Source: Bacteroidota bacterium
GTDB lineage: Bacteria > Bacteroidota > Rhodothermia > Rhodothermales > JABDKH01
Reading direction: 5' to 3'
NCBI GenBank assembly: GCA_020437385.1
Contig: JAGQWL010000049.1
Coordinates: 20,827 to 84,826, forward strand
Length of the DNA stretch: 64,000 bases
Shown here piece after piece: positions 1 through 51,096 of this stretch (positions within the stretch are counted from its first letter, which is position 1; each line of letters opens with the position of its first letter). The notes beneath the pieces were generated by a model. The model saw only the letters and a program-made list of their open reading frames with translations. It had not been told where the DNA came from and made no database searches. The position numbers were made by a program, and so were the translations under genes.

Positions 1-18
1 CTAGATTTTTATCCACAG

Positions 19-6605: not shown

Positions 6606-7274
6606 ATGTCAGCACCGGTAACACATGCTGCGCACCATCCAAAGCAGCAGCATCACTTCGCGTCGATGGATCAGCAATTCGACGCCTCGAAGATGGGGAT
6701 GTGGATCTTCCTTGTGACGGAAGTCCTGCTGTTCTCGGGGATGTTTGTAGCGTACACGGTCTATCGCGTATGGCACCCGGAGACGTTTGACCTGCTTAGC
6801 GGCGCGCTGGATTGGCGGCTCGGCGGTTTTAATACACTCGTTCTGCTGGGTTCTTCGTTCACGGTGGCGATGTCGATCCATTCGATCCAGAAGAGCGACA
6901 AGAAAGCGACGGTGATGTACCTCGTGATCACGCTGATCTGCGCCGCCGCGTTCATGGTCGTCAAATACATCGAGTACACCACGAAGTTTGAGCACGGCGT
7001 GTTTCCCGGGGCGCACTTCGCGCCGCATGGCGAACACTACGCCCCGTTTGACGTGCCGTATGCGCCTCAGTTCTTCTCGATCTACTTCGTCATGACCGGC
7101 ATCCACGGGGTTCACGTGCTCGTCGGGATGGGCGTGATCGCCTGGATCGCCATCCGGACGGCGAAGGGGCACTTCGATTCGCAGTACTACACACCCATCG
7201 AGCTGACGGGACTGTACTGGCACCTTGTCGACATTATCTGGATTTTCCTCTTCCCGCTTCTGTACCTCATTTAA
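6606..7274 (+). CDS. ctaE: Cytochrome c oxidase subunit III
   Basis: 222-aa ORF with GMWIFLVTEVLLFSG near the N-terminus and YWHLVDIIWIFLFPLLYL at the C-terminus. Both are typical of subunit III. Confidence 0.9.
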   Translation: MSAPVTHAAHHPKQQHHFASMDQQFDASKMGMWIFLVTEVLLFSGMFVAYTVYRVWHPETFDLLSGALDWRLGGFNTLVLLGSSFTVAMSIHSIQKSDKKATVMYLVITLICAAAFMVVKYIEYTTKFEHGVFPGAHFAPHGEHYAPFDVPYAPQFFSIYFVMTGIHGVHVLVGMGVIAWIAIRTAKGHFDSQYYTPIELTGLYWHLVDIIWIFLFPLLYLI

Positions 7275-32431: not shown

Positions 32432-33199
32432 TCAGATTATTTCGATCGTTTCTGACGGTACCCAGCCCCTGACTCCGTTTGGAAGCTGTACCAACGTCCA
32501 TTCGCCTGAAACGGCATTCACGTCCACGACGAGCCCCTCATGGATTTCGAGCTCGCTCTCCTGGGTTTCAGGATCGTCCACGACGGGAATCTCTTCCGCC
32601 ATGACCACGGCGGATTCGTCTCGGCCGATTGACATCGAGGCCAGGATACCGCCGAAAAGAAGCGGGAGACCGAGGACAAGCGCAACCGTGACACCTCGCC
32701 GGAGCCACACATTTTCTGACCGGGACCACATACGATAACCGATACCCGCCATCCCGATTACGTAGAGCAACAGACCGATCATCGTCAAGGGCTTGACCAT
32801 CCGCCGCGGAAAGAGCCGGTGCCACAGTGCCTTCAGAAACGGCTCCGGAAGCTTGGAGAACTTGTCGGCAAGCTTCGTTGAGGTCAGCAAAAGGCTGTGC
32901 TGCAGTTCGACACTCGCCGGGTTGAGACGCTCCGAACGCTTGTAGTACAGGATGGCCTTCCCAAGCTCGTCGAGCCTGTATGACGCATTCCCCATGTTGT
33001 AGTAGAGCTCCGGACTTTCAAATCCGGAATCGAGTGCCGCCTGCCACGAAGCAAGGGCCTCTTGATATTCACCCCGGGCGTAGTGCGTGGCACCCTCGTC
33101 GAAATGCTGAAGCGTTTCCGCCGATTGCCCGAACGCGGCATTGAGCAGCGTCACGAGCATCAGATTCAGTAGCGTCATTGTCGGCATGCGGCGGTTCAT
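32432..33199 (-). CDS. batE: BatE-like TPR + SH3b domain protein
   Basis: 255-aa ORF with a signal peptide, TPR repeats (ARGEYQEALASWQAAL), TM helices and a C-terminal SH3-like segment (GEWTLVQLPNGVRGWVPSETIEI). It is the last gene of the Bat-like operon and has a 4-nt overlap with batD. Confidence 0.7.
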   Translation of the reverse strand: MNRRMPTMTLLNLMLVTLLNAAFGQSAETLQHFDEGATHYARGEYQEALASWQAALDSGFESPELYYNMGNASYRLDELGKAILYYKRSERLNPASVELQHSLLLTSTKLADKFSKLPEPFLKALWHRLFPRRMVKPLTMIGLLLYVIGMAGIGYRMWSRSENVWLRRGVTVALVLGLPLLFGGILASMSIGRDESAVVMAEEIPVVDDPETQESELEIHEGLVVDVNAVSGEWTLVQLPNGVRGWVPSETIEII

Positions 33200-35106
33200 T
33201 GCTTTGCCTCCCGTGCCAGCGCGGTCAGTCGCTCGTGGATCTTTTCAATAAGGAACGAGGCCCGCTCCATTGCAGTCTGCATCTGCGAAGTATTCGGCGG
33301 CGTAGGAGCAAAGCGAACGTGATCACATTCGTCCAGGAGGTTCATCACGCCGGCACGAATATCACGTTCGATTCCAGCGTCCGCCAGTGTCGCGTCGAGT
33401 TGCTCCCGCGTCAGCGCCCGTTCACCCACGTTCAGTCGATTCCCGATGAAGCCCAGCAGCGCGCGATCAAGCTCGCCATAGTAGCCCTTTGCGTCACCAG
33501 CCTGCAGCAGTTCTGCCGCTGCCTTCAGGTGTTTTCTGGCCACCGGGTGCGCCTTTCGTCCGCGTGCATACGTGACGTCTGATGCCAGCTTCTCGTTGAA
33601 TCCTCGATAGGCGGCAATGCCCAGAAGTGCCAGTGCCGGAAGCAGAAGGAACGTCCACACGAGGGCAGATCGGTGCACGGCGCGTCGATTTGCACGTACC
33701 CAGTCTGACGCGCTCTCCGCGATAGGGGGAATGTCATCGACCGGAAGTCCTGCTGACGTCGCGGCTGTTACGCCCGTGACGGGCGCCTCACCCGTTACCG
33801 TGACGGAGAACGGACCCGAACTCACGGACTCGTACCTGCCGTTCGTCGGATTCAGGAAGGCGAACCGTATCTCTGGAATCTCAAACGTTCCATTCGTTCG
33901 GGGTACGAGGATGTAGGTGAACGTCTTGGTGCCGCGGACGCTGTTTCCCGAACGTGACACATCCGTCGAGACCTGTGGATCGTAGGTCTCAAAGACGCCG
34001 GGAGCATCAAGGGTCGGGCCCTCCAACGTCGCAATGTTGCCCGTACCTGAGATTGTGACGGTCAGTTCGACTGATTCGCCTACTTCGACCTCGGATCGAT
34101 TCAGTTCTGCATTCAGCCGGAACGAACCGACCGCGCCGTTGAACGCCGCAGGTGCGCCGTCTGGAAACGATTTGCCAACGATCGTGACAGGTCGACTACT
34201 CAACTCAACGGGTTGATACCGGCTGCGAAGACTGAAGAAGGGATCTCGGCTGCCGGACGTGGCCTCGCTCTCGATCTTGAGCGCGTCAACTGTCAGTTCG
34301 CCGGTCCGTGTCGGGAAAACTGCAACGCGCTTCAGCGTTATGACATTGTAGCGGATGCCATTCTCGACGACCGTTCGAGGGACCGGTCGGCTTTCGACGT
34401 CGAGCTCTTCGCGCCAGAAACCTTCGGCATCCCACGAATCGGCGAGCCGACTCTGCCGAAGCTGCACGCCACTCCTGAAGTAGAGATCGTACTCGATCAA
34501 TACCTGCTCGTTTTGATATGCGTTGCGTTTACTCGGTCGCGCCCGGATGAAGAGATCCGAGTTGTTCAGTTCGGGTGCCGGCTGGTCATCACCGAACGCC
34601 TCGTCAAACAGTGAGCGCGGCTGCCTTGCCTGCGGGCGAGCCGGACGCGATGCCTGCGGCACGACGTTGATATCGACTGGATCAGTCTTGTACGTCTTCC
34701 CGCCTGCCACAATAGTACTCTCGCCGATCGTAGCCTTGCCTGTGCCAGTAGGGGTGAACTGCCACGAGTAGCTCATGCTAACAGTCATCGATCCGTTGAC
34801 GACCGAGATGTTTCGTGCAGAACTGGGATAGCGGTTGGCAAGCACGAGCCCCTTTGTTTCTGGAGGCTGCGGCGTTCGAATGTCTGGAAGCGAGGAGCCT
34901 TGAACTTCAATCGTGTAGGTCAGCCGCTCCTCCGATCCGATGGTCGTTTCGTCGACCAGGGCCGAGACCTTCAGGTTCTGGGCCAGCGCGGCGTGTTGAG
35001 ACAGCACGACAAGCACAAACGCGACAAGCGTCGCCGCGCGACGCTGCCCGATGCTGCGGCAGGATAGTGGATGGGTACGGATCGACATAGCCAGGACCTC
35101 TACCAA
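33196..35106 (-). CDS. batD: BatD-like oxygen tolerance protein
   Basis: 636-aa ORF with a signal peptide, repeated Ig-like segments, a late TM helix and a C-terminal helical region. Size and position between TPR and BatE genes match BatD. Confidence 0.75.
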   Translation of the reverse strand: MVEVLAMSIRTHPLSCRSIGQRRAATLVAFVLVVLSQHAALAQNLKVSALVDETTIGSEERLTYTIEVQGSSLPDIRTPQPPETKGLVLANRYPSSARNISVVNGSMTVSMSYSWQFTPTGTGKATIGESTIVAGGKTYKTDPVDINVVPQASRPARPQARQPRSLFDEAFGDDQPAPELNNSDLFIRARPSKRNAYQNEQVLIEYDLYFRSGVQLRQSRLADSWDAEGFWREELDVESRPVPRTVVENGIRYNVITLKRVAVFPTRTGELTVDALKIESEATSGSRDPFFSLRSRYQPVELSSRPVTIVGKSFPDGAPAAFNGAVGSFRLNAELNRSEVEVGESVELTVTISGTGNIATLEGPTLDAPGVFETYDPQVSTDVSRSGNSVRGTKTFTYILVPRTNGTFEIPEIRFAFLNPTNGRYESVSSGPFSVTVTGEAPVTGVTAATSAGLPVDDIPPIAESASDWVRANRRAVHRSALVWTFLLLPALALLGIAAYRGFNEKLASDVTYARGRKAHPVARKHLKAAAELLQAGDAKGYYGELDRALLGFIGNRLNVGERALTREQLDATLADAGIERDIRAGVMNLLDECDHVRFAPTPPNTSQMQTAMERASFLIEKIHERLTALAREAKQ

Positions 35107-35771
35107 TCCTTTTCGACTCGGCGCGGACGCACCTTCATCTTCTGTACCTCCCGCAGCAACTGCCCCTCCTCGTTTTCGAGTGCCTGAAGAATCCGTTCGG
35201 CCTCTTCCTGGCTCAACTGATCAGGATCCGGTTCCTTCGACTGCGCGCCCGGCTGTTTGTCCTCTTCGCCGCCGCCACTTTGTTCATCGCTCTGCTGTTG
35301 CTGATCCTGCTGTTGCTGATCCTGCTGATCCTGTTGATCCTGCTGATCCTGCTGATCCTGCTGATCCTGGTCCTGCTGGTCCTGCTGCTGCTGATCCTGT
35401 TGATCCTGCTGGTCCTGCTGCTGATCTTGCTGCTGATCTTGCTGTTGCTGTTGCTGTTGCTGTTGCTCCTTTTCTTTTTTTGCTTCCTCAATCAGCGCTT
35501 TGAGGCTTTGAAGATCAGCATCGTCAGGAGCGATCGTAAGGCCCGCATCGACAGCTCGCGCCGCGTCCTCCAACTTGTCGCCGATATAATCGCGCGCGGA
35601 CGTGTGGAAATAGTCGTTGGCGGTCTGTGCCTCTGCAAAACGCGGCGACGCCAAAAGAACGACGAGCAGGAGAAGACCACCCGACACCGCGCGGCCGCTG
35701 GTCCACCGGCATCCCGGCGAGCTACTGCAATCGAACCTCAACGCCCTTGTTATCGCTTTGTCCATTTTCAT
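35100..35771 (-). CDS. TPR-like protein with a ~58-residue Gln/Asp repeat tract (BatC-like paralog)
   Basis: 223-aa ORF with a signal/TM, a short TPR-like segment, a Q/D tract encoded by a CTGCTGATC-type microsatellite, and a conserved-looking tail EEAERILQALENEEGQLLREVQK. Confidence 0.6.
   Translation of the reverse strand: MKMDKAITRALRFDCSSSPGCRWTSGRAVSGGLLLLVVLLASPRFAEAQTANDYFHTSARDYIGDKLEDAARAVDAGLTIAPDDADLQSLKALIEEAKKEKEQQQQQQQQQDQQQDQQQDQQDQQDQQQQDQQDQDQQDQQDQQDQQDQQDQQQQDQQQQSDEQSGGGEEDKQPGAQSKEPDPDQLSQEEAERILQALENEEGQLLREVQKMKVRPRRVEKDW
35292..35467. repeat. Imperfect CTG/CTGATC microsatellite (9-bp unit CTGCTGATC and variants, ~176 bp)
   Basis: Read directly on the plus strand. It encodes the QQD/QD repeats of the 35100..35771 protein on the minus strand. 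Confidence 0.9.
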
Positions 35772-35828
35772 CCGTCTCTTTCGTCCAGCATTCCAACGGT
35801 CACGCTGTCTTGTCCGGTACGGTTGTAC

Positions 35829-36515
35829 TTACTGATTGATCTCCGCCACCGAGCCGATTCGGTCGATGAATTCCTGAAACGCCTTAACCGACGGGTCAAC
35901 CGTCAAGCCATCCTCCATCAGCTGGTGCGCGTCGGCGTATTGCCTCTGCCGAACCAGTTCTTCTGCCCGCGCCTTTAACTCCTTTGCATAGGCTGATGGG
36001 GGAGGGGGCGGGCTTCCCTGTGACCCATCCTGCTTGTTTTGGTTCTCTTTCTTCAACTCGCGCATGACGAGTTCATAGTTGAACTTGGCGTCCGCATTGT
36101 CAGGCTCCTGGAGGAGTGAGCGCTTGAAGTAGTCCGCCGAAAGCTGCTTCTGGCTGTCTGCATATGCCGTAAACCCTGCATTGTAGTAGCCCCGCGATCG
36201 CTCGCCGTTCGACGTCGACGCGTTCACCGACGCAACGAAGTTGTCGCGCGCCTCGCTTCCCTTCTCCTGCATCATCAAGCCGGCACCGGCGTTATTGAGA
36301 AGTGACGAGAGGATTTCGCCCCTGGGTTCCTCGTCAGACCGTGTCAGCAGTTTATCAATTCCGGCTCCGTAGGAGGAAACGGCTTCCTCGTATTCACCTT
36401 GCTTGAATTTCGCATTCCCTTTCCGGCCGGCCCCTGCGCCCGGATGGCAGCCCGCGATGATCACGCAGGCAGCAATGAAGACGGTCGCTGTGATATTTGA
36501 GAAAGCACTCTTCAT
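35829..36515 (-). CDS. batC: TPR repeat lipoprotein (BatC-like)
   Basis: 228-aa ORF with the lipobox IIAGC and TPR repeats (FKQGEYEEAVSSYGAGI, YNAGFTAYADSQ). It has a 4-nt overlap with the batB stop. Confidence 0.65.
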   Translation of the reverse strand: MKSAFSNITATVFIAACVIIAGCHPGAGAGRKGNAKFKQGEYEEAVSSYGAGIDKLLTRSDEEPRGEILSSLLNNAGAGLMMQEKGSEARDNFVASVNASTSNGERSRGYYNAGFTAYADSQKQLSADYFKRSLLQEPDNADAKFNYELVMRELKKENQNKQDGSQGSPPPPPSAYAKELKARAEELVRQRQYADAHQLMEDGLTVDPSVKAFQEFIDRIGSVAEINQ

Positions 36516-37549
36516 ACACTGCTTCCCTCGGTGCCATGACTACGGTGACGCCGGGTATCGGTCCACGCCAGCTCCGCAACTAGAAGCATCAGCGCGAGTG
36601 CCAACGGCCACTGGTATTGTTCGTCGTACTCCTCGAATTCCTCAGTTCCAAACTCGTTCTTCTCCAAACGATCGAGAGCAGCGGTTATTTTGGGAAGCGA
36701 GCTCGCAGTTTTTGCAATCCTGAAATACGCGCCGCCATCGGCGAGTTTGCGGAGCGCATCTTCCTCAAGTCGCGTCATCACTACCTGTCCCTGCCGGTCC
36801 TTTTTGTAGACGGTGCCGGAACGGTTTCTCGAAACGGGAATCGGCACGCCTTCGGTTTCACCGACTCCGGCCGTAAAGAGGACGATCCCCGCACGCTCGG
36901 CCTGCTGCACCAGATCATCAATGTCAGGCACGTGGTTTTCACCGTCCGAAACGATCAACAGCGCCTGGGTTCTGCTATCGTCGTTCTCCTCGCGCGCATT
37001 CTCAAAGGCCGAAATCGCTGTTCGAAGCGCCGCGCCAAAGTCTGTTCCGGGAGTCGGAATAAGGTCAGGATTTGCCACATCCATGAAGAGCCGAACGGCT
37101 CCATAGTCGTTCGTCAGCGGACACTGCAGGAAGGCGTCTCCGCTGAATAAAACAAGCCCGACTCGATCGCCTCCGAGCTGGTCGAGCAGTTTCTTGATCT
37201 CGTTGCGTGCTCGGTCAAGCCGGTTCGGAGCGACATCCTGAGCCTGCATCGACAGCGAAACATCGAGGGCAATGATCAGGTCGATACCCTCACGCTGGAC
37301 CTCCTTTATCTGTGAGCCAAATCGCGGTCCCATCAGCGCAACTGCGGCAAACAGAACTGCGGCCGCGACGAGCGCGGCCTTCCATCGGCGGCGGCGAGAA
37401 CTGATGTGCGGCATCAGTCGAGCAGCAACGGCCTCGTCTGCAAGACGGGCAACAAGCCGCTTGCGTCTGACAAACGCCAGCACGAACAATGCGACCACCA
37501 GCGGGACCGCAAAGAGCGTCCAGAAATATTGCGGATGAAGCCACTCCAT
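36512..37549 (-). CDS. batB: VWA domain protein BatB
   Basis: 345-aa ORF with two N-terminal TM helices, a VWA domain with MIDAS DVSLS (LIIALDVSLSMQAQD) and a C-terminal TM. Confidence 0.85.
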   Translation of the reverse strand: MEWLHPQYFWTLFAVPLVVALFVLAFVRRKRLVARLADEAVAARLMPHISSRRRRWKAALVAAAVLFAAVALMGPRFGSQIKEVQREGIDLIIALDVSLSMQAQDVAPNRLDRARNEIKKLLDQLGGDRVGLVLFSGDAFLQCPLTNDYGAVRLFMDVANPDLIPTPGTDFGAALRTAISAFENAREENDDSRTQALLIVSDGENHVPDIDDLVQQAERAGIVLFTAGVGETEGVPIPVSRNRSGTVYKKDRQGQVVMTRLEEDALRKLADGGAYFRIAKTASSLPKITAALDRLEKNEFGTEEFEEYDEQYQWPLALALMLLVAELAWTDTRRHRSHGTEGSSV

Positions 37550-37552
37550 CGA

Positions 37553-38536
37553 TCAGGGGATTCGTTTCAGTCGGGTAGATGCCAGCAGCACTTCCAGCAA
37601 AATCAACAGAAAGGCAGGAAACAGGAAAACGGCATACTTCTCATCGTAGTCGGTGTAGACCTGCTCTTCGATCTTTGTTTTCTCAAGCTGGCCGATCTCG
37701 TCGTAAATGCGTCGGAGTGCCTGCTTGTCGGTTGCGCGGTAGTAGCGTCCGCCGGTTTCGGAGGCTACGGACCGCAGCATGTCTTCATCAATCTCCACCG
37801 GCATCATCCGTTGTTGTCGACCGACCAATGGGTGGTCAATCATAACCGGTGCTTCGCCATAGGTACCGAGTCCGATCGCGTACACTCGGATGCCCATCGC
37901 CTTCGCAACCTCAGCCGCGGTCACCGGGTCTATCTCGCCACGATTGTTCTGGCCATCGGTGAGGAGGATGACAACCTTGCTCTTGGCCTCGGTCTCCTTG
38001 AGCCGATTGACCGATACGGTCAATGCCGTGCCGATTGCGGTGCCGTCCTCGATTGCTCCAACCTCGACCTCCGATAACATCGTCTGCAGAAAATCGTAAT
38101 CAAGCGTCAACGGAGACTGTGTAAACGCCTTTGCCGCAAACACGACGAGCCCAATTCGATCCGAGGTCCGACCTTTGATGAAGTCGGACCCTACTTCTCT
38201 AGCGGCTTCAAACCGATTCGGCTTGAAGTCCTGGGCGCGCATCGATGTGGACGTATCCAGAACCATCATGATGTCGACGCCCTCCGCATAGCGCTGCCTG
38301 AGTTCGTTGCGCTTTTGCGGCCGGGCAAGAGCGATGACGCCGAGTGCCAACGCGGTGACGCGCAGAAACGTTGGAAGCCAGCGGAGGCGTGTCCAAACGG
38401 ATTTCGGTGCCAACCGGGCGGCAGCGACGCTCGGATACCGCAATCCGACCCTGCGGCGGTTCCGCCACCAGTCAAACAGCCCGAACAGAAGAACCGCCGG
38501 AAGCAGTAGTAGCCAGCCTGGTTGTGCAAATTCCAT
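37553..38536 (-). CDS. batA: VWA domain protein BatA
   Basis: The track ORF 37553..39040 runs over the upstream gene in another frame. I trimmed it to the ATG at 38536 (CAT 38534-38536), giving 327 aa starting MEFAQPGWLLLL. MIDAS motif is DTSTS (MMVLDTSTSMRAQD). Confidence 0.85.
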   Translation of the reverse strand: MEFAQPGWLLLLPAVLLFGLFDWWRNRRRVGLRYPSVAAARLAPKSVWTRLRWLPTFLRVTALALGVIALARPQKRNELRQRYAEGVDIMMVLDTSTSMRAQDFKPNRFEAAREVGSDFIKGRTSDRIGLVVFAAKAFTQSPLTLDYDFLQTMLSEVEVGAIEDGTAIGTALTVSVNRLKETEAKSKVVILLTDGQNNRGEIDPVTAAEVAKAMGIRVYAIGLGTYGEAPVMIDHPLVGRQQRMMPVEIDEDMLRSVASETGGRYYRATDKQALRRIYDEIGQLEKTKIEEQVYTDYDEKYAVFLFPAFLLILLEVLLASTRLKRIP

Positions 38537-38540
38537 GCTC

Positions 38541-40100
38541 CTACCTCGAGTTACCGGATGTCCACGGAGCGTTTCGTTCCCACTCGTCGACATCTCGCTG
38601 TTCGGACTGGACAAGCGGCTCGTCCAGATCCTGGGTAGCGGCGTCGTCGTCGGTTCCGGGCCCGACCTCCTGCGGCGGCGTGTCTCGTGCCCGCGGCGTG
38701 CCGGTGCTGCCTTCTTCGTTGTCGCGATTGACGTCAGCTGCAGCACGCTCGGACGGTTCGAGGGTCGGCGCTTCCGGAGACGAATCGACGCGCGTTTCGT
38801 CCGAGGCTGCTTGCGTGGTGTTGTCTTGCGCTTCGTTGGAGTCTGTCGGCGAGGTATCGTCTTGCGCTGCGTTCGAGTCTGACGGCGAGGTATCGACTTG
38901 CGCATCGTTCGACGCGGCTCGAACGGGATCGTCGGCCACATCTTCAGGTGTTGGCGGCGCAGGATCTTCGGCGACTTCGTCCGCACTTGTCCGTCGATTC
39001 GATTCAGCGGGACGTTCCTCGCGGGCGTGAATCGAAGCACCTGCGATCGCCCCTGCCGATGTGCTTGTTGGAGCAGCTATGCCACCCCTGTCGTCCGGCT
39101 GTTGCGGCTCGACCGGGCGTTGGGGCCGAAACGAATCCTCGATTCTCATGACAAGCACGCGGGCCTCGGACAACCCTGCAGTGCAGGTTTCGATTCCGTG
39201 TTTGATGTCGGCGAATTTTGCGAGGTCCGCGGTTTCAAGCAGACCGTGGATGTCTGTCACCACATCGTCAGGTACCGGAGAATCCGCGACATACTTTCGC
39301 ATGGAGACAATCAGCTCGTGCGTCGTCGACTCCAGTGCTGAAATATGCAGTCGCCTTTCGATGTAGGTTCGCACGATTTCGGATAGTTCGACGAAGTAGG
39401 GTTTGATCTCTTCTTGATCTTCGAGCTTCCACTTCTCGAGTGCAGCCAGTCTTCGATTCGCCTCGGCCAGCGGGCTCTCGACAGGGGCTGGCGGAGGTGG
39501 TCGGGGAGTCGGCCGTTGCACGACGATCTCCTTTGGCTTGCGACGCGAAAGCCATCGGTACAGAATGAAGGCGCCGACAAGTCCAACGGCAAGAATGATC
39601 CACGGAAGCGGTGAGCTCGGAAAGTCGGCGATGGGTGTGATGTCGCGCAGCGATTCTGCATCCGGAGTGAGAACGGACGAAACAAGGAGGTCGAAGGGAT
39701 CACTCTGGCGAGCAGTTTCCCGCTCCGGCGACTTGAACGCAACGGGTATCGATCCAACGACGGCGGTGTCGATGGCAAAGGTTGTTGCACGATAAACGAT
39801 CGTGTCAGCGAGCGGATAACGGTGGCCCACGCCGAGGAAGCGACGCCCCGACGATACGCGATCGAGGACGAGTGCGTCGCCGAATGCAGTGCCCTCCGGG
39901 CGCGGCTGGATCTCGGGAAACGCCACCGAGTCCGCCTGGGCGTGTTCCGCAACAACGATGAGTCGGAAGTGATCGCCGACGGTGATGGAGTCCTCCGCGA
40001 CGTAGGCGCGCACGAGCTGTGCCGACGCACCGTTCAGGGCGCCGGCAAACGCCATGAAGAGTGGCGCAAGCAGAAAGAGTCGGCTGTGAGGGCGCGGCAT
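38541..40100 (-). CDS. Membrane protein: BatD-N-like domain + TM + DUF4381-like segment + acidic repeat tail
   Basis: 519-aa ORF with a signal peptide and a periplasmic segment resembling the first BatD module (VRAYVAEDSITVGDHFRLIVVAEH). This is followed by a TM (LPWIILAVGLVGAFILYRWL) and a Pro-rich plus helical region of the kind found in DUF4381 proteins at this operon position. The final ~190 aa form a D/E/S/T-rich tail. Confidence 0.6.
   Translation of the reverse strand: MPRPHSRLFLLAPLFMAFAGALNGASAQLVRAYVAEDSITVGDHFRLIVVAEHAQADSVAFPEIQPRPEGTAFGDALVLDRVSSGRRFLGVGHRYPLADTIVYRATTFAIDTAVVGSIPVAFKSPERETARQSDPFDLLVSSVLTPDAESLRDITPIADFPSSPLPWIILAVGLVGAFILYRWLSRRKPKEIVVQRPTPRPPPPAPVESPLAEANRRLAALEKWKLEDQEEIKPYFVELSEIVRTYIERRLHISALESTTHELIVSMRKYVADSPVPDDVVTDIHGLLETADLAKFADIKHGIETCTAGLSEARVLVMRIEDSFRPQRPVEPQQPDDRGGIAAPTSTSAGAIAGASIHAREERPAESNRRTSADEVAEDPAPPTPEDVADDPVRAASNDAQVDTSPSDSNAAQDDTSPTDSNEAQDNTTQAASDETRVDSSPEAPTLEPSERAAADVNRDNEEGSTGTPRARDTPPQEVGPGTDDDAATQDLDEPLVQSEQRDVDEWERNAPWTSGNSR
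38823..38894. repeat. 36-bp tandem repeat x2 (plus a degenerate third copy to ~38918) inside the 38541..40100 gene
   Basis: The sequence gtcttgcgcttcgttggagtctgtcggcgaggtatc is followed by gtcttgcgctgcgttcgagtctgacggcgaggtatc, read directly. These encode DTSPTDSNEAQD / DTSPSDSNAAQD. Confidence 0.85.
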
Positions 40101-40104
40101 GTGC

Positions 40105-41010
40105 TCAGGCTTTGCTGCGGACGCGGAAGAAGTCTACGAGCGGTTCAAGGTAGCTTTCGTCTGTTCGGACGACGAGTCGGTCAATCTGGTTCTTTCGAAA
40201 TCGGGCCGTGAGTTCGCGCTGTTTGCGGTCGGCCTCATCGGCGAGCGCTTCCCGGACGCGGCGGCTTCCCGTGTCGACGACGACGGTTTCTCCGGATTCC
40301 GCATCCGTCAACTCGATGAGTCCGACGTTCGGCAGCGTCTCTTCACGTGGATCGATCAGGTGCACAACAACGGTGTCGTGTTTCTGCGACAGGGCTCTGA
40401 GCGGTTTCTCGAAATCGGTATCCATGAAGTCGCTCGCAATCATGACGATTGATCGACGCGACAGAACACGATGCAGATGATTGATTGCTGCGGCAATGTT
40501 CGTTCCGGTCGAACGCGGCTGATGCGCGTACAAATCCCGGATCAGTCGAAGTACGTGACGACGGCCTTTCCCGGGAGGGACGAAGAGTTCTATCTGATCC
40601 GAGAAGAGGAGCAATCCCACTTTGTCGCTGTTCTTGATGGCGCTGAAAGCGACGATCGCACAGATCTCCGCCGCAATTTCGCGTTTCAGCTTGGTGGCCG
40701 ATCCGAAGTTCTCGGAACCGGAGATGTCGACGGCGAGCATGACGGTCTGTTCACGCTCTTCGTCATACAGCTTGACGTACGGATCACCCATCCGCGCTGA
40801 CACGTTCCAGTCGATACTGCGGACATCATCACCGACCTGATACGGGCGTACTTCTGCGAACTCAATGCCCTGGCCCTTGAAGCGCGAATGGTATTCGCCC
40901 CCGAAGACGTTATTCACGAGACCTTTCGTTCGGATCTCGATCTGCCGGATTTTCTTGAAGAGTTCCTTGGGTATCATCGGGCGGGATGGACGCCAACGTT
41001 GCCGAGGCAA
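40105..41010 (-). CDS. DUF58 domain protein (VWA-like, MoxR-system partner)
   Basis: 301-aa ORF with the DUF58 core [43 protein letters not shown]. It is the first gene of the Bat-like operon. An alternative start is MIPKEL at 40977. Confidence 0.85.
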
Positions 41011-41921: not shown

Positions 41922-42542
41922 ATGTTGTCAGCAGCACCAATCACGACCTTTCTACTGGCGGTAAACGTTCTGGTTAGCCTTCACGCCCTGTTCGTGGATC
42001 CCGGCGCGTTGGATCGGTACGCGTTTCGGCCGGTTGAAATGCGGGAGCGCAAGGAGTGGTACCGAATGATCACCGGGGCGTTTCTGCACGCCAACCTGGT
42101 CCACCTGCTATTCAACATGATGACGCTGTACTTCTTCGGGCCATATCTGGAGGCGCGGCGTCTTGGTGAGTTGCCGTTTCTGGTCGTTTACTTCGGGTCC
42201 TTGTTGGCGGCGCACGCCTATGCGTACGTTCGGCATCGCAACGATCCGGATTATGCGGCTGTTGGGGCTTCCGGTGCGATTTCCGGAGTGTTGCTTTCTT
42301 TCTGTCTGTTCGAGCCGATGTCGCCGATCTACATCTTTCTGATCCCGGTTGGGATACCGGCGATTTTGTTTGCCGTTCTGTTTATCGCGTTTTCGAGTTA
42401 CGCTGTTCGGGATGCGGACCGGGGCGGCGGTGGTCGGATCGCGCACGACGCGCACCTCGGCGGTGCGATTGCGGGGCTCGTTCTGACGATTATTCTGTCG
42501 CCGAGTGTGCTGCGGATCTTCGTTGCGCAGCTCCCCTTTTGA
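41922..42542 (+). CDS. Rhomboid family intramembrane serine protease
   Basis: 206-aa ORF with six TM helices, the catalytic Ser motif GASGAISGV and the His motif HLGGAIAG. Confidence 0.85.
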   Translation: MLSAAPITTFLLAVNVLVSLHALFVDPGALDRYAFRPVEMRERKEWYRMITGAFLHANLVHLLFNMMTLYFFGPYLEARRLGELPFLVVYFGSLLAAHAYAYVRHRNDPDYAAVGASGAISGVLLSFCLFEPMSPIYIFLIPVGIPAILFAVLFIAFSSYAVRDADRGGGGRIAHDAHLGGAIAGLVLTIILSPSVLRIFVAQLPF

Positions 42543-42580
42543 ATCCGTTATTGCAGCCGGATCATTTCTTTGCGTTTGGT
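42543..42580 (+). terminator. Candidate intrinsic terminator of the rhomboid gene
   Basis: A 5-bp stem (ATCCG 42543-42547 / CGGAT 42558-42562) is followed by the T-rich tail CATTTCTTTGCGTTT. The stem is weak. Confidence 0.35.
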
Positions 42581-42604
42581 GAACTTTCGGCGCTAGTTCC
42601 GTTA

Positions 42605-42639
42605 TTGCTTGTATGGTGCATCTAAAAGAGGTACTTTGA
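42605..42639 (+). promoter_or_regulatory. Bacteroidota-type promoter-like motif (CTTG ... TACTTTG)
   Basis: TACTTTG at 42632-42638 fits the TAnnTTTG -7 element, with CTTG 20 nt upstream (42608-42611). This is a motif match only. Confidence 0.25.
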
Positions 42640-42737
42640 CGTGCCTCATGTTGCCTGATGCCGATACCACCACGTCGGTACTTCAGTCGCTCCTGATGGG
42701 CAATAAGTCCCGGCTCCGCACAGGCCGGGACTTTTAG
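42640..42737 (+). ncRNA. Candidate ~95-nt small RNA (or 29-codon micro-ORF transcript) ending in a strong terminator
   Basis: The unit is bounded by the promoter-like motif and the 10-bp terminator hairpin. Internal pairings can be drawn by hand: UGCCGA 42658-42663 with UCGGUA 42674-42679, and UUGCC 42651-42655 with GGCAA 42699-42703. It contains ATG 42648 to TAG 42735-42737 (MLPDADTTTSVLQSLLMGNKSRLRTGRDF). Confidence 0.3.
42705..42735 (+). terminator. Rho-independent terminator hairpin
   Basis: A perfect 10-bp stem (AAGTCCCGGC 42705-42714 / GCCGGGACTT 42724-42733) with a 9-nt loop is followed by a TTTT run (42632 numbering does not apply here; the Ts are at 42732-42735). Confidence 0.65.
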
Positions 42738-42874
42738 TCAGAATCAGCGCTACGAGGCCGCAAATCTCTCGAAAGCCCTGCATTTGCTCCAAATGCTTGA
42801 GAATGTGCAGAAACGGTGGACAAAGCGTGGACACTTCTGTGCAAACATTGTGGATCGAATGAGTCCTCCGTTTG

Positions 42875-42903
42875 TTGACCGCGGTCGCCCCTGCGGGTAT
42901 TAT
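42875..42903 (+). promoter_or_regulatory. Near-consensus sigma70-type promoter TTGACC-N17-TATTAT
   Basis: TTGACC lies at 42875-42880, the spacer is exactly 17 nt, and TATTAT lies at 42898-42903. That is 5/6 and 5/6 against TTGACA/TATAAT. TTTG at 42871-42874 plus TATTATTG also nearly fits the Bacteroidota -33/-7 pattern. The site is in a gene-free tract. Confidence 0.45.
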
Positions 42904-43199
42904 TGATCCGTGCCTTCGGGCACTGTTCCTTGACGCGACTGAAGGTCTCCAGGCTACATGAGGCTGACCATTTCACGACGACGGGTGCGGCCTGTCGTCG
43001 GTCTACCGAACATGATGATCTTACCGGGCGCGGCGGCTTGCCGTTGCGGTCCGAGGGGGAGTGATCGGTTTGGTGCGCCAGGTGGTTGTCTTGCCGCTTA
43101 GGCTGACGCCCCTTTGCGGTGAGTAGATCACCGGAGCCGGAACGTTCGTCACTTGTTTGACTCACGGCCGTCGGGACTCGTCCTGACACCGAGCTAGAT

Positions 43200-43262
43200 G
43201 GAATCGAGATTCTCGGAATCGGGGTTCTCGGAAACGAGATTCCTGGAAAAGAGATTCTTGAA
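43200..43262. repeat. Four tandem copies of a 15-bp unit GGAAWCGAGATTCTC
   Basis: Read directly: ggaatcgagattctc / ggaatcggggttctc / ggaaacgagattcct / ggaaaagagattctt / gaa. Across unit junctions, GATTC-TCG-GAATC can form 5-bp mini-hairpins. Confidence 0.85.
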
Positions 43263-43385
43263 ACCACTATCGCGAGCTGCTGAGTAAGCCGTGACAGATC
43301 TCCGGCTGGCTGGGTTCGCAACGCTGCTACGGTGGCGCTCGAATCGAGCAAGCACGCCAACACGTCAGTTCGACGATACAATCGG

Positions 43386-43470
43386 TCGACACCGACTCGC
43401 TTTTGAGAACGACTCTCTCACGAGATCGACTCTCTTGCGCGAGCACGAATCGACTTTTCATCGAACTCGT
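43386..43470. repeat. Degenerate direct repeats beginning CGACTC (units of 17, 17, 24 and 11 bp), each with an internal CTC...GAG inverted pair
   Basis: Read directly: cgactcgcttttgagaa / cgactctctcacgagat / cgactctcttgcgcgagcacgaat / cgacttttcat / cgaactcg. Confidence 0.6.
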
Positions 43471-44055
43471 TGTGAGCAGGAAGCATCACTCGAAAGAGGC
43501 GATCGCTTCGAAATGGTTGGAACGCCGCGGGTCGATGATCCAGCGGCGATAGGCGCGGTCCTGCTCGATTCGTCGGGCAGGCGGCGGCAAGGTGTGGTTT
43601 CGTAAAGGCTGACTTGTCAGCTTGAACGGAATCCGCCACTTGCAGCGGAAGCTTCGTTAAGTCGAAGCTGAATTGCGTCGGCACGACGAACGCGGCTACG
43701 GCCGTGTCTGGCGTGCTTAGCGAGCCGAGCACCGAAAGGTGCCGACGGCCCGACCAAGGTAGCTGGCTGCAATCACCGTGTGCCCATGCGGTGAACTACG
43801 GAAGGCTTTGCGCTCTCCGGGACATGCAGCCTCGTGGATCGACGACCCGGTCGACGGCTTGTCCGTCAGGTCGAATACGTCGATTCCGAAAACACGGAGA
43901 TCCGGCCTCCCAATGCCGGGTGCAATTCGCGAGATTGTGCTCGACAGGGAGGCCTCGTGTCGGGGGATTCCGGTCAGTGACCGGGCATCGTCAGGTCGAA
44001 GCCGTAGTGTACCCCGACCGTCGCCGGTTCAGCCGCCAGATCACGGCAACGCAAA

Positions 44056-44784
44056 TCAGCCCGTGCAGAATCGTACAAGATCGCTCCATGCATCGAATGC
44101 AAACAGGCGATCCCGCGCCACATCGGTGCCAACCGCCTTCGTCGCATCGGGAGTGTACCACGCTACGTTCCAGCCGGAGGCCAGCCCACCTTCAACGTCC
44201 GAGTGCCAGGAGTCGCCCACGTACAGAACGTTCTCTGCTGCACAACCCGCCTGCGACAACGCGTATGCGAAGAGCTTCGGACTCGGCTTCATGTGGCCAA
44301 ACTCCTCGCTTATCACAATCGTTGAGGACCGGTCGCGCAGGTCGCGGAAGCGATTGAGCTTCTCACGCTGCGTTGCGGCAAATCCATTCGTGATTATCCC
44401 GACGGACGTCGAGTCCGCGATCCTGCGGAATGCGTCCAGCGCTCCCTCAACCGGCACCCAGAACCGGGAGTACAGCTCCATGTAGCGGTCCGACAGGTCC
44501 AGCGCATCGATCATCAGGCCGTGCCGTTTGACAATGATCGCGAAGCGGTCGTGCCTGAGCTGATCGCCGGTAATCTCCGCAAGGGAATACTGCCGCCAAA
44601 GCTCGACGTTCGAGTCGTGATACTCGCGCTGCAGCGTCTCGAGGTCAAAAGTGAGCTCTTCAACACCACCCAATTCCGTGTGAAGTGCCGCAAGCGCACT
44701 TCGTTCAGCGACGCGGTGATCAAGCAGCGTGTCATCCAGATCGAAATAGACGAAGTCGAATTGACTAGCCATCCGCTCAGTCAA
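44056..44784 (-). CDS. HAD superfamily hydrolase (YjjG/phosphatase-like)
   Basis: 242-aa ORF with motif I FDLDDTLLDH (DxDxT), a cap domain and motif IV VGDSWHSDVEGG. It has an 8-nt overlap with the upstream gene. An alternative start lies at 44772. Confidence 0.85.
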   Translation of the reverse strand: MTERMASQFDFVYFDLDDTLLDHRVAERSALAALHTELGGVEELTFDLETLQREYHDSNVELWRQYSLAEITGDQLRHDRFAIIVKRHGLMIDALDLSDRYMELYSRFWVPVEGALDAFRRIADSTSVGIITNGFAATQREKLNRFRDLRDRSSTIVISEEFGHMKPSPKLFAYALSQAGCAAENVLYVGDSWHSDVEGGLASGWNVAWYTPDATKAVGTDVARDRLFAFDAWSDLVRFCTG

Positions 44785-48590: not shown

Positions 48591-49181
48591 TCAGAATCGG
48601 AGAGTGAGTTGGGTTCGCAATCCTAACGCCGATGGTTCGACTGCGACGAGCAAGTTGTCACCTACATCGAAATCCATCAGATGCGCGCTCACGTACGCGT
48701 CCAGGATGCTCAGCCCGTATGCAACTCCGATTCCCAGTACCGAAAGATCGCGATTTCTACGTAGAGCATCCCGCGCAGGTTTTATAGTGGATGCGGAGAG
48801 GCCAATTCCGCCGAATTTCGCGACAAGGCGTTCATATTCTGACTCCAGAGCGGCCTTCGGGTTTGTCTCGCCTTCGGGCGTGATCTCCTCGTAGGCCTTG
48901 TACTGGTAGGCGTGACGGTAGAGGAGATACTTGTCGTTCAGTCGAACCGTATTTGCCGCCAGGCCGCCAAGAACGAGGTAGACGATCGGCAGCTTGCCGT
49001 ACTGCCGGTTGTAGACCTGCCCAAGCCCGGGAAACACCGCCGCTCGAACGAGCGCGGTTCTCGGAGAATGGTTCTCCCTCCAGGACTCTTGAGAGGGCCG
49101 TTCCGCGAGTTGAGCGTGAGCCGGCCTGCCGCAACCGGTACCGGCCAACATCGCCAGTGCGAACATGAAGGCGCTTCTCAT
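48591..49181 (-). CDS. DUF5683 domain protein
   Basis: 196-aa ORF with a signal peptide, the FPGLGQVYNRQYGKLPIVYLVLGG motif and a C-terminal beta-like tail. It has the typical position directly after parB seen in Bacteroidota. Confidence 0.75.
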   Translation of the reverse strand: MRSAFMFALAMLAGTGCGRPAHAQLAERPSQESWRENHSPRTALVRAAVFPGLGQVYNRQYGKLPIVYLVLGGLAANTVRLNDKYLLYRHAYQYKAYEEITPEGETNPKAALESEYERLVAKFGGIGLSASTIKPARDALRRNRDLSVLGIGVAYGLSILDAYVSAHLMDFDVGDNLLVAVEPSALGLRTQLTLRF

Positions 49182-49196
49182 GTTGCCTCTACCTGA

Positions 49197-50159
49197 TTAC
49201 CTGAGGAGCAGGTCCATCAATCGTTCCAGGTCATCGACGGAATAGTAGTCGACTTCGATGCGACCCGAAGAATCCGAGGGCTGATGCCTGATATTGATCT
49301 TGGTGCCGTACTTCGCTCGGAGCTCGTCTGCATAAGCCTGCAGCTGCAGCCGGTCCCGCGTGTTAGCAGCCCCTGAAACCTGCGATGAGTCCGACTTGCG
49401 AGGCGTCGGCGGATTCAGGATCGACTTTACGCGCTGCTCGACCTGTCTGACGGAGAGCTGCTCGGATTCAATCTCCTTCATCAGCTTCTCCTGTTGCGCG
49501 ACGTCGTCGAGAGAAAGCATTGCGCGCGCGTGACCGGGCGAGATGCGCTGGGCTCGAAGCGCGAGCTGCACGGTCGGCGGTAGCCGAAGAAGTCGGACGG
49601 TGTTGGCAACCGTCGCGCGGTTCTTTCCGATCTTCTCCGCAACCTGATCCTGGGTGAGCTCGCACTCCTCCATGAGTCGCTGATACCCCAACGCGACTTC
49701 GATCGGATCAAGCTCCTCGCGCTGCACGTTTTCGACGATCGCCATCTCAAGCATGGCCTCCGTATCCGCCTCACGTACGTACGCGGGGATTCGCTCAAGC
49801 CCGGCAATCCTGGACGCGCGCAGTCGCCTTTCACCCGAAATCAACTCAAACCTGCCGGCGCCCACCGAACGGACCGTGATCGGCTGGATAATCCCGAGCT
49901 GGCGGATCGAGTCGGCAAGTTCGTGCAGCGCATCCTCTTCGAAGGTTTCACGCGGTTGATACGGATTGCGGTCGATGCGGCTGGTTTCGATTTCCGCGAC
50001 CCGTCCTACCATACGCACGCGATCATCGAACTCATACATCGGGGACTCCGACGTTCCCTTGCTGTCATCTTCGTTCTGCGTCAGCGCACGGCCAGGCAGG
50101 AGCGCCTCGAGGCCACGCCCAAGAGCTGCGCGTTTCTGTGTCGGTTTGCTGGATGACAT
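49197..50159 (-). CDS. parB: Chromosome partitioning protein ParB/Spo0J
   Basis: 320-aa ORF with the ParB box GIIQPITVR, the ISGERRLRAS motif and an HTH segment. Confidence 0.9.
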   Translation of the reverse strand: MSSSKPTQKRAALGRGLEALLPGRALTQNEDDSKGTSESPMYEFDDRVRMVGRVAEIETSRIDRNPYQPRETFEEDALHELADSIRQLGIIQPITVRSVGAGRFELISGERRLRASRIAGLERIPAYVREADTEAMLEMAIVENVQREELDPIEVALGYQRLMEECELTQDQVAEKIGKNRATVANTVRLLRLPPTVQLALRAQRISPGHARAMLSLDDVAQQEKLMKEIESEQLSVRQVEQRVKSILNPPTPRKSDSSQVSGAANTRDRLQLQAYADELRAKYGTKINIRHQPSDSSGRIEVDYYSVDDLERLMDLLLR

Positions 50160-50163
50160 TGGC

Positions 50164-50221
50164 TGAGTCGGTTACGCTGCTAAGTCGGTTGCTGAATCGG
50201 ATACGCTATTAAGTCGGTTGC
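50164..50221. repeat. Two tandem 29-bp direct repeats in the parA-parB spacer
   Basis: tgagtcggttacgctgctaagtcggttgc (50164-50192) is followed by tgaatcggatacgctattaagtcggttgc (50193-50221). Identity is 24/29. Read directly. Confidence 0.85.
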
Positions 50222-50271
50222 GGAATCTCATGGATGCGGTTGGTAGTGTCCTGTCCCGGCCGACGGTTGCC

Positions 50272-51096
50272 TCATTCGCCTGGTCCGGCGCTTGTCGACG
50301 GCTCGCTCACGGCACGACTCTCGGCGAGGAATTGTTCATTCCGGCGGAGGACTTCGCCTGCAAGGCTTATGTAGTTTCTCGTGCCCTTGCTCGCCGCGTC
50401 GTAGAGAAGCACGGGTTTCCCGAAACTCGGTGCCTCGGAGAGCCGAACGTTTCGCTGAACAATCGTCTTGAAAACGCGCTCGCCGAAATACCGTCGAACC
50501 TCGTCTGCCACCTGATTCGCCAGGCGAAGTCGGTTGTCGAACATTGTCAACACGACGCCTTCGATATCAAGGGCCGGGTTCAGATTTGTCCGTACGATCT
50601 TGATCGTGTTCAGCAGTTGCCCAAGTCCCTCAAGCGCAAAATATTCCGCCTGAACCGGGATAATGACGGAGTCGGCTGCGGTAAGTGCATTGAGTGTCAG
50701 GAGACCCAGTGATGGGGGACAATCAATCACGAGGAAATCGTATCGATCGCGGATCGGGCGGAGGGCGTTCTTAAGAATCTGCTCACGCTCCGCCACATCG
50801 ATCATTTCGATCTCGGCGCCGACCAGATTGATATGGCTCGGTACGAGATCCAGGAACGGCATCTCGGTGCTACGGATGGCATCAGAGAGCGTGATGGCGC
50901 CGATAAGCACCTCGTAACTCGTCGCCGTGACGGTGCGCGGGTCGATGCCGACGCCCGAGGTACAGTTTGACTGCGGGTCGAAGTCCAGCAGCAGGGTTGG
51001 ATGTTCGGTCGCCGCCAATGACGCTGCAAGGTTGACCGCGGTCGTCGTTTTGCCCACGCCCCCCTTCTGATTCGCGACCGCTATTACTTTTCCCAT
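50272..51096 (-). CDS. parA: Chromosome partitioning ATPase ParA/Soj
   Basis: 274-aa ORF with the deviant Walker [17 protein letters not shown] and an extra C-terminal tail of about 20 aa. Confidence 0.9.

Follow-up and report, generated by a model that had tools for sequence, protein, structure and literature searches.

A new family of large structured RNAs with a partner small RNA in Rhodothermales-type Bacteroidota

A 64,000-nucleotide (nt) stretch of the Bacteroidota bacterium contig JAGQWL010000049.1 (positions 20,827 to 84,826 of the forward strand; hereafter the window, in whose coordinates all positions are given) carries two adjacent non-coding RNA genes in a 1.5-kb gap (42543–44055) between convergent protein genes. 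The larger gene encodes a structured RNA of ~1.06 kb, and the smaller, lying upstream on the same strand, encodes a terminated small RNA (sRNA) of ~95 nt with three segments complementary to the large RNA. Together they represent a new large structured RNA family with a partner sRNA, and neither RNA matches a catalogued family. That the tract is a real structured RNA gene we hold to be highly likely; that it is a ~1.06-kb RNA with a co-evolving partner sRNA and an sRNA-driven structural switch we consider probable. An earlier note, made from the letters of the window, had proposed a plus-strand structured RNA here from a promoter followed by tetraloop-capped hairpins; it had missed the 3′ end, the upstream sRNA gene and a DnaA-box-like array before the promoter. 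Feature coordinates are collected in Table 1.

Folding analysis of positions 42910–43975 gave a minimum free energy (MFE) of −513.2 kcal/mol for the plus strand versus −431.1 ± 8.9 kcal/mol for 60 dinucleotide shuffles (z = −9.3), and a z of −3.6 for the minus strand. The unconstrained MFE structure contained a 5′ hairpin (H0), a helix closing the whole RNA (P1), two helices adjoining it (P2 and P3), a hairpin with a UGCCCAU loop (M) and five of the six hairpins that the earlier note had singled out. All six are present in the sequence, and those at 42910–42923, 42976–43000, 43608–43621, 43650–43669 and 43724–43749 form as described; the sixth, at 43117–43133, gave way in the MFE structure to the longer-range helices 43081–43087/43127–43133 and 43090–43097/43116–43123, which the nearest relative (locus L001) backs at least equally. 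Stable tetraloop hairpins (UUCG, CUUG or GNRA) were found six times on the plus strand of the window RNA versus once on the minus strand, against a background of 0.79 per kb on each strand in the rest of the window. In 48 distinct family RNAs, the densities were 9.6 per kb on the plus strand versus 0.6 per kb on the minus strand (approximately 16-fold), and the strand-specificity that the note had read from a single sequence thus holds for the family.

Relatives were collected by two scans. A genome-collection scan with the rhomboid protein encoded just upstream of the gap returned at least 39 loci, the closest of which are labelled Rhodothermales, Rhodothermaceae or 'Bacteroidetes bacterium' metagenome-assembled genomes. 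Seven genome loci (L001–L004, L006, L008 and, in part, L005) share the non-coding layout of the window downstream of the rhomboid gene; window positions 42895–42963 are 83–87% identical in these loci, whose rhomboid proteins are merely 49–57% identical. A metagenome-collection scan with the invariant 18-mer GTTCCTTGACGCGACTGA (42925–42942) returned 109 stretches. The full downstream signature was present in 86 loci including the window (85 further loci, from metagenomes and genomes), and the remaining 18-mer stretches were chance matches. The promoter, the 5′ hairpin, P1, P2, P3 and the UGCCCAU-loop hairpin are conserved and covary in this family, in which the large RNA ranges from ~0.47 to 1.23 kb. 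The 18-mer was not found in 2.9 million viral contigs, and a mobile or viral origin was rejected on this result and on the strictly kept synteny of the locus.

MAFFT misaligned the window when applied to full-length RNAs across clades, and anchored blocks were analysed instead. The alignments resolved four conserved blocks or segments: a 5′ block of ~55 nt, a variable middle of 300–900 nt, the UGCCCAU hairpin and a 3′ domain of ~90 nt. RNAalifold applied to 12 full-length relatives of ~720 nt independently recovered H0, P1, P2, P3 and M together with many local hairpins, and 57 of the 112 pairs showed compensatory double changes. Pair counting over a concatenated core of 36 sequences found that 90.4% of cells pair, compared with 45–52% when the partners were slid by 1–3 columns, and the covariation score of the core was reached by none of 500 shuffles. 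The P3 columns of alignment A2 are off by one for GGCC-type sequences, which lowered the apparent pairing of P3. Compensatory changes and a one-strand folding energy beyond that of shuffles are the general marks of a structured RNA, and both were observed here. The computational checks that the earlier note had asked for all turned out in favour of its proposal of a large plus-strand RNA.

Individual helices differed in their patterns of change. H0 is present in nearly all relatives with varying loops (UGAC, UAAC, UCAC and UUCG among them) and divergent stems, such as GGCCC-UCCG-GGGCC in L106. In P1, 91.6% of cells pair among the 36 sequences and every change in the 3′ strand is wobble-compatible; the 5′ strand is invariant by construction because homologues were picked by the exact 18-mer. 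P2, GGUCUCC/GGAGAUC in the window, occurs as GAGUCUC/GAGACUC, as AAACUCU/AGAGUUU (L044) and as GAAUCUC/GAGGUUC (L133), and P3 alternates between AA/UU and GG/CC. The 3′ domain is conserved by blastn with L001, L056, L112, L115 and L116, and an nhmmer profile of it matched 58 loci. The stem of the M hairpin covaries, and its UGCCCAU loop is kept in 41 of 48 distinct RNAs. The first internal hairpin lies in covarying RNAalifold columns (63–76), and the hairpin that relatives carry at the equivalent place is capped by GAAA or UUCG and unrelated in sequence. No close relative aligned across 43608–43749, and the hairpins there have thermodynamic support only.

Several features of the variable middle domain are restricted to parts of the family. 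The window carries 3.9 tandem copies of a 15-nt unit that are not seen in relatives, each of which can pair with its neighbour or form a mini-hairpin. The L040-type clade shows the invariant blocks GGAGGAUGUUCGAAG, GGACGGCAGAUGAUCC and ACGUCCCGGCGU (columns 171–185, 216–232 and 326–337 of alignment A3). About half of the family RNAs contain CGUCCCGGCG, which is absent from the window.

The large-RNA promoter that the earlier note had read as TTGACC, a 17-nt spacer and TATTAT is present at 42875–42903 and is the sole sigma-70-like site in 42000–44600. The match alone is at chance level (one found versus 0.9 expected in shuffles); the promoter is supported because it is conserved at a fixed distance. 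TTGAC(A/T/G)-17-TAnnnT occurs in 35 of 49 distinct upstream regions of relatives at a fixed distance to the RNA core, with 20–23 nt between the end of the −10 box and the 18-mer. This spacing places the start on the 5′ hairpin or 1–2 nt before it, in agreement with the start that had been predicted about 7 nt after the −10 box at the UUCG hairpin.

The 5′ end of the large RNA was placed from this promoter and the 3′ end from P1. An end at 43750, as given in the note, falls ~220 nt short: the RNA reaches ~43968, where its 3′ end pairs back to its 5′ end. Most relatives have an intrinsic terminator directly after the 3′ domain, with the next gene convergent. The relatives' terminator is preceded by an A tract and followed by a U tract, and looks bidirectional. 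Within the 3′ domain of the window, ~150 nt past the stop codon of the convergent haloacid dehalogenase-type (HAD) hydrolase gene, a minus-strand hairpin with a T run (43910–43896) resembles a terminator and may end the HAD transcript.

Contig ends in the metagenome collection coincided with the predicted RNA ends. Nineteen contigs (1.07–1.72 kb) start within 25 nt upstream of the 18-mer, and ten of these also stop within 12 nt past the 3′ strand of P1. These end-matched contigs look like assembled transcripts of an abundant, end-defined RNA. In addition, the contigs of L042, L046 and L060 (and L056 and L116) continue into unrelated and often AT-rich sequence precisely at the 5′ core or just past the 3′ closing strand, and look like chimeric assemblies joined at transcript ends.

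The large RNA is neither coding nor a leader, as indicated by the lack of a conserved open reading frame (ORF), its own terminator in most relatives and the convergent next gene. The ORF at the conserved AUG, for which the earlier note had counted only 47 codons in the window, has anything between 2 and 204 codons in relatives, often amounting to no more than 'MR-stop'. We also considered whether the gap might hold no RNA gene at all and instead be a decayed coding region, a long untranslated region, a leader of riboswitch type or what is left of a mobile element with inverted repeats that imitate helices, as 1.5 kb between convergent genes with long random ORFs on both strands (e.g., 42734–43381 on the minus strand, 215 amino acids) and nested inverted repeats might suggest. 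However, no ORF within 42543–44055 matched Pfam, and a hidden gene was rejected on this result and on the loss of the ORF at the conserved AUG. Moreover, indels and compensatory changes track helices and not codons, relatives terminate straight after the 3′ domain with the downstream gene on the opposite strand, and the locus is single-copy, strictly syntenic and absent from viral contigs. This explanation is scarcely credible.

The partner sRNA was delimited by a covariance model built from 28 relatives, which gave a single match in the window (60.7 bits, E value 6e-13) and also found the unit in other family loci. The sRNA unit is kept in every family locus with enough upstream sequence; beside rhomboid genes of Flavobacteriales, Cytophagales and other orders (L007–L039), the model found nothing convincing. 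Its promoter is represented in 39 of 41 distinct loci by TTGnnn-16..18-TAnnnT (mostly TATCTT) at a fixed place relative to the 5′ seed, and its terminator stem covaries in relatives. The sRNA thus has its own promoter and a Rho-independent terminator, as trans-acting base-pairing sRNAs do. RNAalifold also paired UGCC/UGUU of the seed with GGCA of AUGGGCA (columns 8–11/89–92 of alignment A4; approximately 42649–42652/42698–42701 in the window), and on this predicted fold the free sRNA may mask two of its own binding segments. Upstream of the sRNA, the motif CCGTTATTG occurs twice, 54–87 nt apart, in nearly every locus with enough flank, and the corresponding pair of TCCGTTATTGC repeats in the window is a candidate regulator site.

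The sRNA has three single-stranded segments, each complementary to a part of the large RNA. Segment S1, the 5′ seed, matches CAGGCUACAUGAGGC in the leader (−27.0 kcal/mol, matched by 0 of 1000 shuffles); S2 matches GCGACUGAAG slightly further upstream (−21.1 kcal/mol, matched by 2 of 1000); and S3, AUGGGCA, matches the UGCCCAU loop of the M hairpin (−14.9 kcal/mol, matched by 14 of 1000). The same pairings surface as inverted repeats in the window (nested repeats I17 and I5 for the leader). Among 33 distinct cognate pairs of RNAs, 96.1% of intermolecular cells pair, compared with 27–41% when the partners were slid. Five intermolecular pairs showed double-sided changes, in 13 cells compared with 3.1 ± 1.4 in shuffles, a number that none of 500 shuffles reached, and cognate partners out-paired permuted ones in all three duplexes (p ≤ 2e-4, 1e-3 and 0.04, respectively).

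The individual exchanges were distributed over all three duplexes. A U-A pair replaces the C-G of other loci in the S1 duplex of the window, L001 and L100. The S2 duplex is lengthened by matching U-A pairs in the window, L001, L044 and L082. In the S3 duplex, L059 combines AUGGACA in the sRNA with UGUCCAU in the loop, and the sRNA of L096 (AUGAGCA) matches the loop of the related L119 (UGCUCAU). L106 and L142, short variants whose whole large RNA measures ~560–580 nt, have lost the AUGGGCA segment and the UGCCCAU loop together. In these two loci, the downstream plus-strand ORF departs from the HAD synteny; from its translation we take it, as a guess, to be a phosphatidylserine decarboxylase. 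Complementarity kept by changes in both genes is the mark of a base-pairing sRNA, and we infer from these exchanges, with good confidence, that the sRNA pairs with the large RNA in trans in vivo.

The positions of the binding sites relate the sRNA to the fold of its partner. The inner four base pairs of P1 fall within the S2 target, as do the initial three nucleotides of P2, whose last nucleotide is where the S1 target starts; the 3 nt between the two targets face the internal hairpin of the sRNA. Because the sRNA sites overlap P1 and P2, the sRNA-bound state and the closed P1/P2/P3 junction exclude each other, and both states appear to be under selection because the same nucleotides of the large RNA covary with both partners (L044 and the window).

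We propose the following scheme. The large RNA is transcribed from the sigma-70-type promoter preceded by the DnaA-box-like array. It begins with the 5′ hairpin and is closed as a whole by P1, stacked on a P1/P2/P3 three-way junction enclosing the lineage-variable middle, with its UUCG- and GNRA-capped hairpins, and the conserved UGCCCAU hairpin. The 5′ end of the sRNA would pair with CAGGCUACAUGAGGC and its middle segment with GCGACUGAAG, and AUGGGCA would kiss the UGCCCAU loop. Most simply, the sRNA would capture the 5′ leader during transcription, ahead of synthesis of the 3′ domain; alternatively, it would invade the finished junction. In either case the large RNA would be toggled between two forms, one closed and one open with the sRNA bound, and decay, site exposure, assembly or titration of the sRNA are candidate outcomes.

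The same contacts could also belong to a two-piece RNA machine in which the sRNA is no regulator and serves as a permanent subunit, stapling the 5′ leader to the M hairpin in a ribonucleoprotein scaffold or ribozyme. Three contacts, including a loop-to-single-strand kiss that bridges sites ~850 nt apart, would suit such an assembly, as would the genes being always adjacent and co-oriented and the combination of a conserved core with a variable periphery, as in RNase P or tmRNA. However, covariation is seen in P2 and in the inner part of P1, neither of which can form together with the sRNA duplexes, and this speaks for two alternative states; L106 and L142 do without the kiss; and no conserved motif resembling a catalytic core, nor any protein gene associated with the RNA pair beyond ordinary synteny, was found. 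We give a permanent assembly a small chance.

A further alternative is that the sRNA is an ordinary regulator of mRNAs, with the large RNA acting as a sponge or decoy that titrates it or as a target cleaved by RNase III/E, and with the fold serving mainly for stability. Most of what is universally conserved in the large RNA consists of sRNA-binding sites and closing helices, the seed lies at the extreme 5′ end of the sRNA like that of many regulatory sRNAs, and the bound leader contains an invariant CAUGAGG resembling a start-codon region. In the parAB cluster, the start codon of the DUF5683 gene is overlapped by 12 nt that complement the seed perfectly (AGGCAACAUGAG; 49189–49175, minus strand); we estimate that ~0.008 such matches would be expected by chance in the window. 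This match was not kept in 12 other loci, however, and DUF5683 was rejected as an mRNA target, the match being treated as chance or lineage-specific. All three single-stranded segments of the sRNA serve the large RNA, its hairpin opposite the 3-nt gap looks like a designed junction and not like a seed match, and a sponge would have no need of 0.5–1.2 kb of conserved, covarying structure. Described sponge pairs (SroC-GcvB, the chbBC spacer with ChiX, and the tRNA 3′ external transcribed spacer of leuZ with RyhB/RybB) likewise involve a non-coding transcript complementary to an sRNA seed, but those sponges are short or are by-products of mRNAs or tRNAs, whereas here a covarying structure of 1 kb faces three sRNA segments and no conserved mRNA target was found. 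We consider a sponge unlikely, while allowing it some weight.

The region between the two genes contains five DnaA-box-like 9-mers in helical phase. These boxes have 1–3 mismatches to TGTGNATAA, with four of the five at two or fewer. Most relatives have 3–5 consensus boxes TTATNCACA upstream of the −35 box of the large RNA, often ~11–12 nt apart, in arrays lying ~15–90 nt upstream of it. Perfect TTATNCACA boxes numbered 18 in 4.9 kb of distinct upstream regions versus 4 in 349 kb of flanks (~320-fold), and boxes with at most one mismatch were enriched 35-fold upstream of the large-RNA promoter. The array is probably a DnaA-responsive promoter element in an origin-proximal region, as judged from box sequences and their placement. 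Several TTATNCACA boxes directly upstream of a promoter are also found at DnaA-regulated promoters and clusters outside oriC (dnaA, nrdAB and mioC of E. coli; Bacillus subtilis); the present case differs in that the product would be a non-coding RNA, the boxes of the window are degenerate and the array is known from sequence alone. A single DnaA box of the window is perfect, TTATCCACA at 9–17.

The DnaA boxes and parAB also raised oriC as a candidate. In 23 loci, GC skew kept its sign from one flank to the other, with no switch (the profile within the window is noisy); the flanking genes converge; and neither a dnaA gene nor a parS-like site was found in the window. On these grounds oriC was set aside as the principal reading. 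There is also no marked AT-rich tract. A wider version of this idea treats the DnaA cluster as an origin or DnaA-titrating locus, with the two RNAs acting on initiation like ColE1 RNA II and RNA I. The enriched, phased array between the two genes, parB and parA lying 5–8 kb off in every locus with enough flank and the formally similar geometry of an sRNA facing a nascent 5′ leader would fit it. In addition to the skew, the convergent flanks and the missing dnaA and parS-like sites, however, an intrinsic terminator follows the large RNA in most relatives, the RNA seems to accumulate as a discrete species with paired ends, and the sRNA is not cis-antisense. We regard a direct role in initiation as extremely improbable.

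The similarity to plasmid copy-number systems is nevertheless instructive. As in ColE1 RNA I/RNA II and R1 CopA/CopT, a terminated RNA of ~100 nt binds the first ~50 nt of a far longer RNA through a number of contacts, one of them with a loop, and its binding competes with a fold that needs later-made sequence. In the present pair, by contrast, the sRNA is encoded in trans, by a gene on the same strand 175 nt further upstream, with complementarity in blocks of 15, 10 and 7 nt, so that the cis-antisense arrangement of ColE1 is absent; the locus is chromosomal, the long RNA is terminated and stable, and nothing points to priming or to an origin.

Neither RNA resembled a described family. Rfam 15, its SRP and group I/II intron models included, gave no match at the gathering threshold in the 64-kb window or in 10 diverse family loci (50 kb); the best sub-threshold scores were 13.7–20.5 bits versus cut-offs of 37–82 bits, on unrelated short elements. 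The earlier note, which could name no known family for the tract, is borne out on this point. ARAGORN found no tRNA or tmRNA in the window. A literature search (non-coding RNAs of Rhodothermales, Salinibacter and Rhodothermus; reviews of large RNAs; a 50-genome survey of GC-rich intergenic regions; a survey of sRNAs in halite) yielded no prior description within the library covered. The RNA might still be a divergent member of a described family (OLE, GOLLD, ROOL, raiA, HEARO, RNase P, tmRNA or 6S), or one published and not in Rfam, given that its size, abundance of tetraloops and closing helix are typical of such RNAs; with no gathering-score match, nothing relevant in E-value mode, the negative ARAGORN result and the literature search, we consider this very improbable.

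Comparison with OLE, GOLLD, ROOL and raiA (RF01071, RF01998, RF03087 and RF03072) identified shared traits at the level of architecture. All are stand-alone genes of 0.5–1.2 kb with dense, covarying, tetraloop-capped helices, a closing helix, a conserved core with lineage-specific expansions, apparent abundance in environmental RNA and neighbours that reveal no function. The window RNA nevertheless has no covariance-model similarity to any of them. Its hosts are Rhodothermales-type Bacteroidota, whereas theirs are Firmicutes, phages or rumen organisms; unlike that class, it lies beside neither tRNAs nor oap genes and is absent from viral contigs. The prophage or tRNA neighbourhood of GOLLD and ROOL is replaced here by housekeeping synteny in a window that contains no tRNAs. 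The dedicated trans-pairing sRNA and the DnaA-box promoter set the window RNA further apart; to our knowledge, neither has been reported for OLE, GOLLD, ROOL or raiA.

Several points weigh against the proposal of a large RNA switched by its own sRNA. The support for P1 consists of one-sided, wobble-compatible changes, and the middle 800 nt of the window RNA have no alignable relative, their hairpins being thermodynamic predictions. Neither the window nor L001 shows a canonical terminator after the large RNA, so that the 3′ end in the window depends on P1. Expression was read from contig ends and not from direct transcript mapping in this organism. Most intermolecular positions are invariant, the covariation amounts to a handful of events (13 cells), and the complementary segments could pair in cis if transcription read through the sRNA terminator. 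The DnaA-like boxes of the window itself are degenerate (1–3 mismatches), and neither a function, a protein partner nor an mRNA target was found. Given the conserved promoters, the covariation within and between the RNAs and the mutually exclusive folds, we still consider the switched two-RNA system the probable explanation.

The gene order around the locus is conserved throughout the family: rhomboid, sRNA, large RNA, HAD hydrolase, GNAT-like, aminotransferase, (glycosyltransferase), DUF5683, parB and parA. The two RNA genes are always adjacent and in the same orientation, the locus is single-copy, and parB and parA were found 5–8 kb downstream in 12 of 12 loci with enough flank. This conserved parAB neighbourhood suggests a chromosomal region near the origin. 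Elsewhere in the window, a Bat-type aerotolerance-like cluster (BatD, a TPR protein, two VWA/BatA-like genes and DUF58; 33196–41010, minus strand) lies upstream of purQ and the rhomboid gene, an ORF of 2672 amino acids occupies 13667–21685 (minus strand), and 19–7274 (plus strand) encodes alternative complex III subunit ActD, cytochrome c, SCO1 and cytochrome oxidase subunits II/I/III.

Table 1. Positions of the two RNA genes, their elements and neighbouring genes in the window
Feature	Position	Strand	Detail or basis
Rhomboid-family gene	41922-42542	+	Flanks the gap
Direct repeats TCCGTTATTGC, 11 nt, exact	42544-42554, 42598-42608	+	First just past the rhomboid stop codon, second abuts the sRNA promoter
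sRNA promoter TTGTAT, 17 nt, TACTTT	42609-42637	+	Sequence and conservation
Partner sRNA, ~95 nt	42642-42735	+	Covariance model
sRNA segment S1 (5′ seed) GCCUCAUGUUGCCUG	42643-42657	+	
sRNA internal hairpin	42659-42680	+	
sRNA segment S2 CUUCAGUCGC	42681-42690	+	
sRNA segment S3 AUGGGCA	42696-42702	+	
sRNA intrinsic terminator	Stem 42705-42714/42724-42733	+	U run to 42735
DnaA-box-like 9-mers TGTGCAGAA, GGTGGACAA, CGTGGACAC, TGTGCAAAC, TGTGGATCG	Starts 42804, 42815, 42826, 42838, 42849 (42804-42857)	+	In helical phase
Large-RNA sigma-70-type promoter	42875-42903	+	TTGACC 42875-42880, TATTAT 42898-42903; sequence and conservation
Large structured non-coding RNA, ~1.06 kb	42910-43968	+	MFE, homologues, covariation
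5′ hairpin H0, GUGCC-UUCG-GGCAC	42910-42923	+	
P1 5′ strand GUUCCUUGACGCGA	42925-42938	+	14-base-pair helix with 43955-43968; MFE and RNAalifold
Predicted sRNA-binding leader	42935-42964	+	Complementarity; GCGACUGAAG 42935-42944 (S2 target), CAGGCUACAUGAGGC 42950-42964 (S1 target)
P2, GGUCUCC/GGAGAUC	42944-42950/43896-43902	+	MFE and RNAalifold
First internal hairpin CGACGAC...GUCGUCG	42976-43000	+	MFE and RNAalifold
Tandem repeat, units GGAAACGAGAUUCUC / GGAAACGAGATTCTC	43200-43258	+	Variable middle domain
Hairpin GCUGA-CUUG-UCAGC	43608-43621	+	Variable domain; MFE
Hairpin AGCUUCG-UUAAGU-CGAAGCU	43650-43669	+	Variable domain; MFE
GAAA-capped hairpin	43724-43749	+	Variable domain; MFE
M hairpin, stem CACCG/CGGUG, loop (UG)UGCCCAU(G)	43774-43793	+	UGCCCAU at 43781-43787
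Conserved 3′ domain	43896-43968	+	P2 3′ strand, P3 and P1 3′ strand; blastn, nhmmer
P3 hairpin base GGCCUCCC/GGGAGGCC	43904-43911/43947-43954	+	MFE
HAD-hydrolase gene	44056-44784	−	Flanks the gap, convergent
DUF5683, parB and parA genes	48591-51096	−	Order kept in all 12 related loci with enough flank

Few large bacterial RNAs of elaborate fold and unassigned function have been described, and every one of them has given rise to new research. Cryo-electron microscopy has shown that OLE, ROOL and GOLLD form RNA-only assemblies (PMC12286853). The present family adds an example in the under-studied Rhodothermales-type Bacteroidota, a lineage that is common in samples from the sea, salt marshes, hypersaline sites and soil, and it offers experimental handles: defined ends, two conserved promoters, three sRNA contacts pinpointed by covariation, exclusive predicted folds and a candidate DnaA input. 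Its discovery also indicates that reading promoters and tetraloops from raw sequence can flag an RNA gene missed by curated model libraries. We tentatively suggest, as a possibility that we consider less likely than not, that an order of Bacteroidota maintains a two-RNA system in which an ornate RNA of ~0.5–1.2 kb is toggled by an obligate sRNA and produced from a DnaA-controlled promoter, tying it to the replication or cell-cycle state of an origin-proximal region near parAB. If true, the large RNA would be the first in bacteria, within the size class of OLE, ROOL and GOLLD, for which both an obligate partner RNA and a readable input to its regulation are known.

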